Shown here: one piece after another, positions 54,397 to 55,586 of the stretch
Numbering within the stretch: position 1 is the first letter of the stretch
How the letters are laid out: each line of letters opens with the position of its first letter
Assembly: GCA_016124745.1 (NCBI GenBank)
Contig: WGNC01000013.1
Coordinates: 2,378-66,377, forward strand
DNA length: 64,000 bases
Origin: Thiobacillus sp.
Lineage (GTDB): Bacteria > Pseudomonadota > Gammaproteobacteria > Burkholderiales > Thiobacillaceae
Direction: 5' to 3'
Notes under the pieces: model-generated
Told to the model about the DNA's origin: nothing
Seen by the model: the letters and a program-made list of their open reading frames with translations, nothing else
The model's database searches: none
Made by a program: the position numbers and the translations under genes

Positions 54397-54409
54397 TACA
54401 ATGCGCGCC
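54397..54409 (+). promoter_or_regulatory. Stable-RNA-type promoter: -10 TACAAT plus GC-rich discriminator
   Basis: TACAAT-GCGCGCC immediately before the tRNA-like sequence at 54412. Confidence 0.6.
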
Positions 54410-54411
54410 GT

Positions 54412-54500
54412 GGAGGTGTGGCCGCGGGTTTCGAGGCGCCGGTCATGACTCCAGCGCGCAAGTTGCCGCCGGAACCCGATCCGGCGGGCACGGCTCAACA
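54412..54500 (+). pseudogene. Degenerate copy of tRNA-Ser(TGA)
   Basis: GGAGGTGTGGCCG..GGTTT..AGGCGCCGGTCaTGAc aligns to the intact tRNA 99 nt downstream; anticodon TGA kept at 54446-54448; acceptor stem does not close. Confidence 0.6.
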
Positions 54501-54510
54501 ATGAGGTACT

Positions 54511-54600
54511 GGAAGCGTGGCCGAGCGGTTTAAGGCACCGGTCTTGAAAACCGGCGATGGTGCAAGCCATCCGTGAGTTCGAATCTCACCGCTTCCGCCA
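54511..54600 (+). tRNA. tRNA-Ser (anticodon TGA)
   Basis: Acceptor GGAAGCG/CGCTTCC, anticodon stem CCGGT/ACCGG with loop CTTGAAA, long variable arm, GTTCGAATC, encoded CCA. Confidence 0.97.
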
Positions 54601-54728
54601 CCCCTTCGAATCACGCGAAGTGGGCAAGCCCAGGCGCATGGTTGTTTCCCCCCCAATACCAGAGCAATCAGGACGTCCAAGCGGGCGTTATTTGTCGTAC
54701 CGGCCAGACTTGATGAGAAAATCAGCAC

Positions 54729-55586
54729 ATGGCTCAAGCTTTGTCCCTCACTCCCAGCAACCACGACCGCGACAGCGCGAAGATGACCTATGTCTATCCC
54801 GTCGTGTCGCGGCGCGCGGCCGGGGTATCGGTAGGCGTCAACCTAAATCCCAACTCGGCTTGCAACTGGGCATGCGTGTATTGCCAGGTTCCGGAACTGA
54901 AGCGCGGCACCGCGCCGGATATCGACCTGATCCAGCTGGAAGAAGAACTGCGCACGATGCTCGCCTCCATCCTCCATGGCGATTTCATGCAAACGCGCGT
55001 TCCCGCAGGAGCTCGACGCCTAAACGACATAGCCCTGTCGGGCAACGGCGAACCGACCAGCGCCCGGGTCTTTCCGCAGGTCGTCGAACTGATTGGCCGG
55101 GTGATGGCGGATTTCGATCTCGTCGGCCGGATCAAGCTGGTGCTGATCACCAACGGCAGCCTGATCGACCGGCCGCGCGTGCAGGCCGGCCTCGAAAAAA
55201 TGGCGGCATTGAACGGCGAAGTCTGGTTCAAGTTTGACAGCGCGACGGCAAGCGGCATGCGCAGCATCAACCAGACCCGCATCAGCCCTGACAAGCAGTT
55301 CGAGCGCCTGGGCATCGCTGCGCACTTGTGCCCGACCTGGCTGCAAACCTGCGTGTTCGCGCTGGATGGTGCGCCACCGTCGGAAAACGAGCAGGCAGAA
55401 TATCTGGCTGCGGTGACCCGCATGCGGCAGCACCGGCTACCCGTACAGGGCGTGTTGCTGTATGGCCTGGCACGGCCCTCGATGCAGCCGCAGGCTAACC
55501 GCCTGTCGCCACTGCCTGCCGAATGGCTGGATGATTTTGCCGGGAAGATTCGTGCGGCGGGTTTGCCCGTAAAGGTATCGCTGTGA
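54729..55586 (+). CDS. Radical SAM protein of unknown function
   Basis: CxxxCxxC (CNWACVYC), IALSGNGEPT, LITNGS. Confidence 0.88.
   Translation: MAQALSLTPSNHDRDSAKMTYVYPVVSRRAAGVSVGVNLNPNSACNWACVYCQVPELKRGTAPDIDLIQLEEELRTMLASILHGDFMQTRVPAGARRLNDIALSGNGEPTSARVFPQVVELIGRVMADFDLVGRIKLVLITNGSLIDRPRVQAGLEKMAALNGEVWFKFDSATASGMRSINQTRISPDKQFERLGIAAHLCPTWLQTCVFALDGAPPSENEQAEYLAAVTRMRQHRLPVQGVLLYGLARPSMQPQANRLSPLPAEWLDDFAGKIRAAGLPVKVSL

Follow-up and report, generated by a model that had tools for sequence, protein, structure and literature searches.

The window, that is, the whole stretch of 64,000 nucleotides (64 kb) from Thiobacillus sp. that was analyzed here, contains a single tRNA gene, which ARAGORN assigns to tRNA-Ser(TGA), and the sequence of this gene is 100% identical in the related genomes G024, G002, G021, G014, G005 and G007. 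Between its promoter and its first nucleotide lies a composite block that contains a partial tRNA copy and a remnant of a structured repeat module of about 60 nt, to which we gave the label M. The features of the locus are the following:

54397-54402, plus strand: TACAAT, the -10 box of the ancestral tRNA-Ser promoter, recognized by the conserved block ...cccgctacaatgcgcgccgt
54412-54447, plus strand: outer, displaced and decayed copy of tRNA-Ser positions 1-35 (half-tRNA), recognized by alignment, shuffle test and position behind the promoter
54448-54453, plus strand: remnant of the variable hairpin (V/P0) that precedes M; ACTCCA aligns with GCCGCA at the insert start in G002 and G009
54454-54479, plus strand: remnant of M, covering the region of hairpin P3 and the 3′ strand of stem P1 (GCGCGCAAGTTGCCGCCGGAACCCGA), aligning with GCCGCGCAAGCGGCGGCCGGAACTAAAA in G009
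54466-54487, plus strand: 8-bp hairpin, seen in the sequence and in the MFE fold
54480-54488, plus strand: tail, a copy of the tRNA past the insertion point (about positions 38-46; TCCGGCGGG versus ACCGGCGAT)
54489-54510, plus strand: inner leader containing CAACAAT (54496-54502), a degenerate repeat of the -10 region, by sequence likeness
54511-54600, plus strand: intact, functional tRNA-Ser(TGA), by ARAGORN and by Rfam RF00005 (60.3 bits over 54511-54597)
54672-54699, plus strand: terminator-like hairpin with T-rich tail 3′ of the tRNA, by consensus scan only

The terminator-like hairpin lies 72 nt past the tRNA and ahead of a radical-SAM gene (54729-55586).

The original prediction, made from the sequence of the window, had described a partial copy of the 5′ part of the tRNA upstream of the intact gene, and this copy is real. 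It starts 9 nt past TACAAT, and 54412-54448 aligns with tRNA positions 1-37 (GGAGGTGTGGCCGCG-GGTTTCGAGGCGCCGGTCATGA versus GGAAGCGTGGCCGAGCGGTTT-AAGGCACCGGTCTTGA in the tRNA, with one 1-nt gap on each side), the two differing by 6 mismatches and 2 single-base indels. The local alignment score of 32 lies above all 2000 shuffles of the leader (14.5±2.2, maximum 30), and among the other 108-nt windows of the 64-kb window 0/2350 reach it (maximum 27). The D-stem GCC/GGC, the CCGGTC and the TGA are retained as had been noted, and the acceptor stem can indeed not form. Rfam detects no tRNA-like match in 54403-54510, even at E<=10, and ARAGORN calls none there either; the upstream copy is therefore not a foldable tRNA, and the low-score pseudo-tRNA call that had been expected is absent. 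The acceptor strand of the half-tRNA reads GGAGGTG, which is the variant of other species of the genus, as opposed to GGAAGCG in the inner gene. Either different alleles at the time of insertion or two chance substitutions could account for this, the latter being possible because the closest relative, G024, reads GGATGTG.

What the upstream copy is becomes apparent from the orthologous loci. We searched the locus in 40 related genomes and inspected, for each tRNA-Ser(TGA), the 260 nt that precede the gene. The block ...cccgctacaatgcgcgccgt is kept in most genomes of the same genus, and in eleven of them, which are free of an insertion (G013, G018, G001, G004, G003, G010, G011, G006, G017, G023 and G022), it ends exactly at +1 of an uninterrupted tRNA, with TACAAT 9 nt from the gene. 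TACAAT therefore is the tRNA's own conserved promoter, and the half-tRNA, which lies behind this promoter at the same position as the tRNA in the insertion-free relatives, occupies the normal start of the tRNA. A simple sigma-70 scan of the window gave no call at this promoter because its -35 region is weak. In G002 and G009, the same promoter is followed by a 5′ half that ends with GGTCTTG in the anticodon loop, by an insert of about 105-110 nt, and by the intact tRNA. The 5′ half is identical to the intact gene in G002 (36/36) and near-exact in G009, and in both genomes tRNA positions 1-35 are followed by a hairpin, an M of about 60 nt and a repeat of tRNA positions 36-44, behind which a new leader precedes the intact tRNA. 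With R1, a covariance model of M that was built in this analysis, the two inserts score 71 and 64 bits, respectively. G024 has the same layout in a further decayed state, G019 retains the 3′ part only, and G005, G007, G014 and G021 retain the extended leader only.

The spacer of the window is orthologous to these loci with intact M, as it has the same promoter, the same break past position 35, and a matching P3, 3′ end and tail; the half-tRNA ends in the anticodon loop, as do the 5′ halves of G002 and G009. In the alignment with the two genomes (A2), ACTCCA of the window stands opposite GCCGCA, about 50 nt are deleted, and then GCGCGCAAGTTGCCGCCGGAACCCGATCCGGCGGGCAC aligns with GCCGCGCAAGCGGCGGCCGGAACTAAAACCGGCGGGCGC. 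The remnant has thus lost the 5′ half of M (AGGCTAAC and P2), and it was recognized through the alignment with orthologous loci and not through R1, which does not detect the window locus in a search of the window's own genome (G000) at E<=0.01. Rfam assigned the spacer to no known RNA family, neither at the gathering threshold nor at E<=10. The inner leader GGCTCAACAATGAGGTACT followed by GGAAG resembles the promoter block CCGCTACAATGCGCGCCGT followed by GGAGG when both are read directly, and the duplicated segment therefore extended into the promoter; CAACAAT at 54496-54502 is a degenerate copy of the -10 region that was carried along in the duplication. The window locus has a flanking duplication consisting of an outer copy (54412-54447), an inner copy (54511-54545) and the -10-like copy.

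A decayed copy of a tRNA next to an intact one could in principle have a simpler origin, and the original prediction had assumed an old tandem duplication with a degenerated upstream copy. If the whole gene had been plainly duplicated in tandem and the upstream copy had drifted, the hairpin would be a chance or secondary product. The inclusion of part of the -10 region in the duplicated segment would agree with this, and so would a tRNA-Phe locus (L058) in which a 3′ half, albeit decayed, is still present in the upstream copy. That tandem duplications do occur is shown by G029, where tRNA-Ser(TGA) is present as two complete genes in tandem. However, past position 35 the sequence is not a drifted tRNA but is homologous to the M-bearing insert of G002 and G009, and the layout of a 5′ half with M is encountered again at several other genes, for tRNAs as well as proteins, across many genera. 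We therefore regard a plain tandem duplication as unlikely: the partial copy and its degeneration stand, the plain tandem origin does not, as the spacer corresponds to an M insert in the G002 and G009 orthologues. The copy would stop at position 35 because a structured repeat of about 60 nt inserted there, and we consider it probable that the half-tRNA is the decaying leftover of a partial gene duplication that was tied to the landing of M in the anticodon loop.

The perfect 8-bp hairpin that had been described downstream of the half-tRNA is present (CCGCCGGA / ACCCGA / TCCGGCGG, with arms at 54466-54473 and 54480-54487). It had been placed where the T arm should be, but it lies in foreign inserted sequence past tRNA position 35. 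Its arms are the 3′ end derived from the invariant GGCCGG of M and the CCGG of the tail. More precisely, GGCCGGAACTAAAA, which is left over from the 3′ end of the repeat, pairs with CCGGC, a copy of the 3′ strand of the anticodon stem, and the hairpin is what remains of GGCCGGAAC-TAAAA-CCGGC. The counterpart in G002 and G009 is GCCGG-AACTAAAA-CCGGC, and the G024 orthologue has a different sequence at the site. The hairpin thus appears to be a by-product of the pairing between the GGCCGG 3′ end of M and the CCGG of the target copy, and the suggestion that its retention hints at selection on structure is not borne out, as it differs in G024, as the surrounding block diverges fast, and as the folding energy is ordinary: the presumed leader of 102 nt folds with -45 kcal/mol, compared with -41.6±3.7 kcal/mol for shuffles (z = -0.91).

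The fast divergence is evident from the comparison with G024, in which the half-tRNA is 65% and the insert remnant 60% identical and the tRNA 100%, whereas the flanks are 83% (upstream, 135 nt around the promoter) and 82% (downstream) identical. Such free divergence in a close relative had been named as a sign of a neutral relic. It has to be weighed against the idea that the block is a functional leader element under selection, such as a small RNA derived from the tRNA, or a signal for processing or stability. The position between a conserved promoter and a highly expressed gene is suggestive in this respect, the 8-bp hairpin is strong, and G024 too has a long, albeit different, hairpin at about the same place. 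Yet the identity to G024 is below that of the surrounding intergenic DNA, the z-score of the fold is inconspicuous, in several genomes of the same genus such a leader is absent or largely lost, and the core of M is deleted in the window, which makes a selected function decidedly unlikely. Because the block lies directly behind the conserved promoter, the 5′ leader of the pre-tRNA very probably consists of it, and we conclude that it most likely is a neutral relic, as had been considered in the original prediction, which now merely serves as a long 5′ leader that is presumably trimmed off by RNase P. The half-tRNA and the hairpin are thus best seen as an insertion scar in decay, and neither an annotation as functional pseudo-tRNA nor one as small RNA is advisable. 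The locus itself is a case of ordinary decay, and the interest lies in the repeat family M.

The consensus of M, derived from 32 copies (alignment A1), comprises about 60 nt, TTTCAGTGnAGGCTAAC-P2-GTTAAGC-P3-GCGGCCGGAACTAAAA, with the invariant words AGGCTAAC, GTTAAG and GGCCGnA. RNAalifold and pair counting on these 32 copies indicate a three-way junction. P1 consists of P1a, in which AGU/ACU covaries with GGC/GCC, and P1b, which is GGCU/GGCC with a U-G pair in 31 of the 32 copies, and the two are separated by a 3x3 internal loop GNA/GNA. In P2 and P3, the sequence is free to vary while the pairing is maintained, and the loops of P3 are often GNRA or GNA. Altogether, 95.7% of the cells are paired, 10 of the 19 pairs have double changes, and the covariation score is 0.342, whereas shuffles reach 0.114 and slid partners no more than 0.10.

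When the insert of G002 was used as BLAST query, matches were found in 65 of 401 genomes of the order, often several per genome and some in tandem. An exact-pattern scan with one genome per species gave more than 120 M loci among the matches listed; nearly all of these are labelled as Betaproteobacteria or as unclassified proteobacterial MAGs, and the named taxa among them include Gallionella, Sideroxydans, Thiobacillus, Methylophilaceae, Rhodocyclaceae and Burkholderiales. Copies of M are present, for example, in Thiobacillus denitrificans DSM 12475 and in a MAG of Sideroxydans lithotrophicus. R1 detects 0-22 copies per genome in 26 relatives, and at E<=1e-5 it finds no M in 299 genomes of the class outside the order, with 17 candidates scored per genome. 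In G000 there are two intact copies outside the window, at C2:207135-207200 (62.8 bits) and C43:86067-86130 (41.7 bits). The former lies at codon 11 of a gene for an NAD-dependent epimerase-like protein and is associated with a 43-nt duplication (2 differences) that includes the ribosome-binding site and the ATG. Short M-like units of 45-51 nt form tandem arrays with a period of 57-64 nt in G031 (C1:58248-58349, C23:7-121 and C42:48585-48763), and short forms without the P3 hairpin are present in G027. Rfam 15 contains no family that matches M, either in the window (E<=10) or at six related loci (E<=5), and full-text literature searches gave no description of it. The M family thus has apparently not been described so far.

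The most characteristic aspect of M is its surroundings. Direct repeats of 21-89 nt (score >=18) flank 73 of 110 distinct M copies and 0 of 288 control positions, and in 39 of the 73 the downstream repeat copy starts at most 1 base from the terminal (C/T)AAAA of M. In the cases examined, the repeated segment is the end of a gene. At tRNA-Ser(TGA, GGA) and tRNA-Phe genes, M occurs together with duplicated tRNA positions 1-35 and leader, and M also adjoins tRNA-Ser(CGA, GCT) and tRNA-Leu genes; it is found with the duplicated starts of murG and of an epimerase gene, and in G027 with duplicated 3′ ends of genes including the stop codons. At the tRNA sites, M is followed by a copy of positions 36-46 or 36-48 of the tRNA of the same genome, a new leader and the complete tRNA. 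At the intact loci, the sequence after M is always AAAACCGGC(NN), which corresponds to these positions of the own tRNA including lineage-specific variants, as seen at L051, L052, L054 and L073. The above-mentioned tRNA-Phe locus L058, with its decayed 3′ half in the upstream copy, looks like a whole upstream tRNA that was split by M. At tRNA sites, the duplication may have arisen through the insertion of M, or it may be older, with M having landed in one member of an existing tandem pair. Moreover, the stretch immediately 5′ of M tends to repeat, in inverted orientation, the first approximately 13 nt 3′ of M, which extends P1: at least 11 of 14 positions pair across the ends of M in 23% of the copies, compared with 2.4% for permuted partners.

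Two protein-coding sites give information on the origin of the two copies. In the nuoC-nuoD spacer of many betaproteobacterial genera (L092, L101, L113, L124, L141, L148, L183, L196 and others), the ATG and the first approximately 11 codons of nuoD are duplicated around M. The order of elements is the nuoC stop codon, a second nuoD ATG with 10 codons, a reversed M, an inverted target end, a new ribosome-binding site and nuoD, and the outer ATG opens an upstream ORF of 41-48 codons that runs through M and ends just ahead of the real start. In 12 genomes, the outer and inner copies of nuoD differ by 40 synonymous and 2 non-synonymous changes. Selection at the peptide level on the outer copy was considered as a reason for this bias and rejected, since the same synonymous bias is seen at L217, where the dangling 3′-end copy is untranslatable (7 synonymous versus 1 non-synonymous, by eye), and since an allele difference is apparent at an empty epimerase site. 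The epimerase comparison involves one empty and several filled sites of the same genus: the empty site in G004 reads gccgat / aaacccggcggcgccggtgagcaggattttcat / tgttggtcctcc, and the filled site in G006 reads gccgat / aaaaccggcggcgcctgtaacaagaactttcat gatgtctcc gccgg / M / aaaaccggcggcgccggtgagcagaattttcat tgtttggcctcc. The outer copy, beside the old upstream region, is the resident allele, and the inner copy, which now is the head of the gene, represents another allele and has a ribosome-binding site to itself; this inner copy and its ribosome-binding site most likely came with M. Because of the L217 pattern and the empty-site comparison, an allelic origin of the differences between the nuoD copies is favored.

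The tRNA-Ser(TGA) locus is of interest also for other insertions. In G009 (L016/L042, C36:74100-74594), the tRNA-Ser is followed at a distance of about 830 nt by a gene for a tyrosine integrase, and in G004, G019 and G010 AT-rich DNA follows immediately 3′ of the tRNA. The tRNA-Ser of G008 (L038) has a chimeric acceptor stem (5′ GGAGGTG and 3′ CGCTTCC, with two G-U pairs) and a further 5′ half just 7 nt upstream, which suggests a recombination within the gene. Rfam matches beyond the tRNA at the related loci are limited to weak, sub-threshold similarities to sX4, a proteobacterial sRNA, with 33.7 bits at L038 and 22.9 bits at L011 (G002) at a gathering threshold of 70; they span the tRNA-Ser and a shared hairpin, gcgtgccatgcgaaaat..gccatggcacgc, in the region of about 90 nt downstream of it.

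The locus is probably also an integration site for islands, and one could imagine that the half-tRNA is an attL-like scar of a tyrosine-integrase island which had integrated at the anticodon loop of tRNA-Ser before being lost by deletion. The tRNA-Ser(TGA) gene indeed looks like a hot spot in the genus, given the integrase in G009, the AT-rich foreign DNA in G004, G019 and G010, and the chimeric acceptor stem in G008. Islands normally leave 3′ tRNA fragments, however, and not 5′ halves as found here, and no extra 3′ half of the tRNA was found in G000, G002 or G009. The contig of the window (C35) carries no integrase (PF00589), and the spacer belongs to a repeat family that also occurs in nuoC-nuoD, at murG and other sites, and in tandem arrays. 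An origin as island scar is therefore very improbable.

The same anticodon loop can also be interrupted in another way. In G020 of the same genus (L039, C1:772050-772360, minus strand), an insert of about 220 nt interrupts tRNA-Ser(TGA) behind the CTT(G) of the loop, and the core of this insert (GTGTAGAGACTTGACGGCTCCCGCCTAAGGC...) presumably resembles the group I intron of Azoarcus tRNA-Ile; ARAGORN missed this split gene, and Rfam gave no intron match for it. The block of the window might accordingly be imagined as a degenerate copy of a tRNA-Ser with a group I intron in its anticodon loop that became redundant beside an intron-less copy, for which the G020 case would be the precedent. But the inserts of G002, G009 and G000 share nothing with that of G020, M is present also in protein genes, there is no Rfam group I intron match in the window or at the related loci, no intermediates between M and a group I core were seen, and such an origin hardly seems credible. 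M resembles group I introns of the Azoarcus tRNA-Ile type in that it interrupts the same anticodon loop, but it comprises only about 60 nt, has no group I core and has no complete 3′ exon alongside; at M sites the gene is rescued by duplication, in case of group I introns by splicing.

How does M compare with other mobile or repetitive elements? Integrases of the P4 type use tRNA 3′ ends, dusA-specific integrases replace the 5′ end of dusA, and the elements carry the replacement gene end. As with these gene-end-targeting islands, the gene interrupted by M is functional through a second copy of the cut-off end, the resident and incoming copies differ as alleles (epimerase site), and tRNA anticodon loops are used. 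Unlike the islands, the unit of M has about 100-200 nt with no integrase or other gene, the repeats are imperfect and, with 21-89 nt, long, the duplicated segments can be 5′ ends, 3′ ends or tRNA 5′ halves, and there are tandem arrays. Small structured repeats are known in bacteria, such as Correia/NEMIS, ERIC, MITE, REP and BIME elements, and the Rickettsia palindromic elements sit inside genes, including RNA genes. Like MITE, REP and BIME elements, M is short, non-coding and structured, has a low to moderate copy number of 0-22 per genome, and shows an imperfect terminal complementarity (TTTCAG.../...CTAAAA), and genome-specific sub-variants of M suggest that it may have proliferated within genomes. 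In contrast to these elements, M has a three-way-junction core with covariation and an invariant U-G pair, and in contrast to MITEs its duplications are variable (21-89 nt) instead of short and fixed, and its ends are imperfectly complementary.

Similarities to integron attC sites are also apparent. The attC consensus is GTTRRRY for R′ and RYYYAAC for R″, and by eye the GGCTAAC...GTTAAGC hairpin of M is similar, as GTTAAGC fits R′ and GGCTAAC is close to R″. An extrahelical base, a variable middle with conserved structure, and arrays without an integrase nearby (CALIN) are further common aspects. However, the hairpin of M is far shorter than an attC site, which comprises at least about 55 nt with the architecture R″/L″...L′/R′, there are an extra conserved arm (GGCCGnA) and no cassette ORFs, and the gene-end duplications that flank M are not an integron feature. 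In Betaproteobacteria, there is one further repeat to be considered, the BRE, an intergenic repeat that is restricted to this group, often occurs in tandem, sometimes overlaps gene ends, and has no known function (Hot et al. 2011, PMC3110155). M shares with BRE the occurrence as betaproteobacterial intergenic repeat that is often in tandem and sometimes at gene ends, but the two are not identical: BRE reads TTTTTTGGCCGCGGGCCGCCCAAGGCAAAAAAGCCCCC..., its printed copies are unrelated to M, and no core word of M is contained in the published sequence list (PMC3110155).

The course of events that we propose begins with an ancestor in which M became placed within the anticodon loop of tRNA-Ser(TGA), between position 35 and the AAAA of positions 36-39. 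The inserted unit would have consisted of a variable hairpin, M, and a short copy of the target, and, as at most other M sites, a duplication of the gene end that M interrupted would have remained from the event. The result would have been the order promoter, tRNA(1-35), hairpin, M, tRNA(36-44), new leader and complete tRNA, in which the downstream complete copy serves as working gene and the half-tRNA stays on the ancestral promoter. Transcription from this old promoter is presumed, and the upstream block would become part of a 5′ leader of about 100 nt that is removed by RNase P. In the lineage of the window, about 50 nt of M would then have been deleted, and the half-tRNA would have gained its 6 substitutions and 2 single-base indels.

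For the spread to new genomes, we envisage that a unit of gene-end copy, hairpin and M recombines into the homologous site of the new genome, in a Campbell-like or ends-in manner. The crossover could fall wherever homology permits, and the tRNA layout would result from a crossover within positions 1-35. One boundary, the 3′ end of M beside an A-run, is always fixed. The allele pattern of the copies is compatible with such a recombining unit of M and flank.

Enzymatic alternatives were also considered. An insertion by a mechanism similar to target-primed reverse transcription (TPRT) is attractive because the duplication starts at the A-run by the 3′ end of M and has a variable length. Neither reverse transcriptase (PF00078) nor Y1 transposase (PF01797) tracks the copy number of M, and G027 has 22 copies of M and neither of the two. 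As G027, G000 and G002 carry M without an RVT_1 match, TPRT-like retroposition is considered to have a low probability. A REP/RAYT-type or IS200-type Y1 transposase was rejected, as there is no correlation with M.

M is found in many betaproteobacterial genera, has no match in Rfam 15, is distinct from BRE, and is bracketed by duplicated gene ends. Our tentative interpretation is that M may be an undescribed, very small mobile element of Betaproteobacteria without an apparent transposase, integrase or reverse transcriptase of its own, which would enter beside an A-run in or near essential genes, namely at anticodon loops of tRNAs, at approximately the first 11 codons of nuoD, at murG, at an epimerase gene and at some 3′ ends of genes, extend its stem into the target, and bring or create a second copy of the interrupted gene end, so that the gene survives; the half-tRNA of the window would be a fossil of such an event. 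If a specific insertion mechanism is behind this, a tiny non-coding element would have found an unusual route for colonizing essential genes without killing them, and leader peptides, upstream ORFs and long tRNA leaders would repeatedly originate from M.
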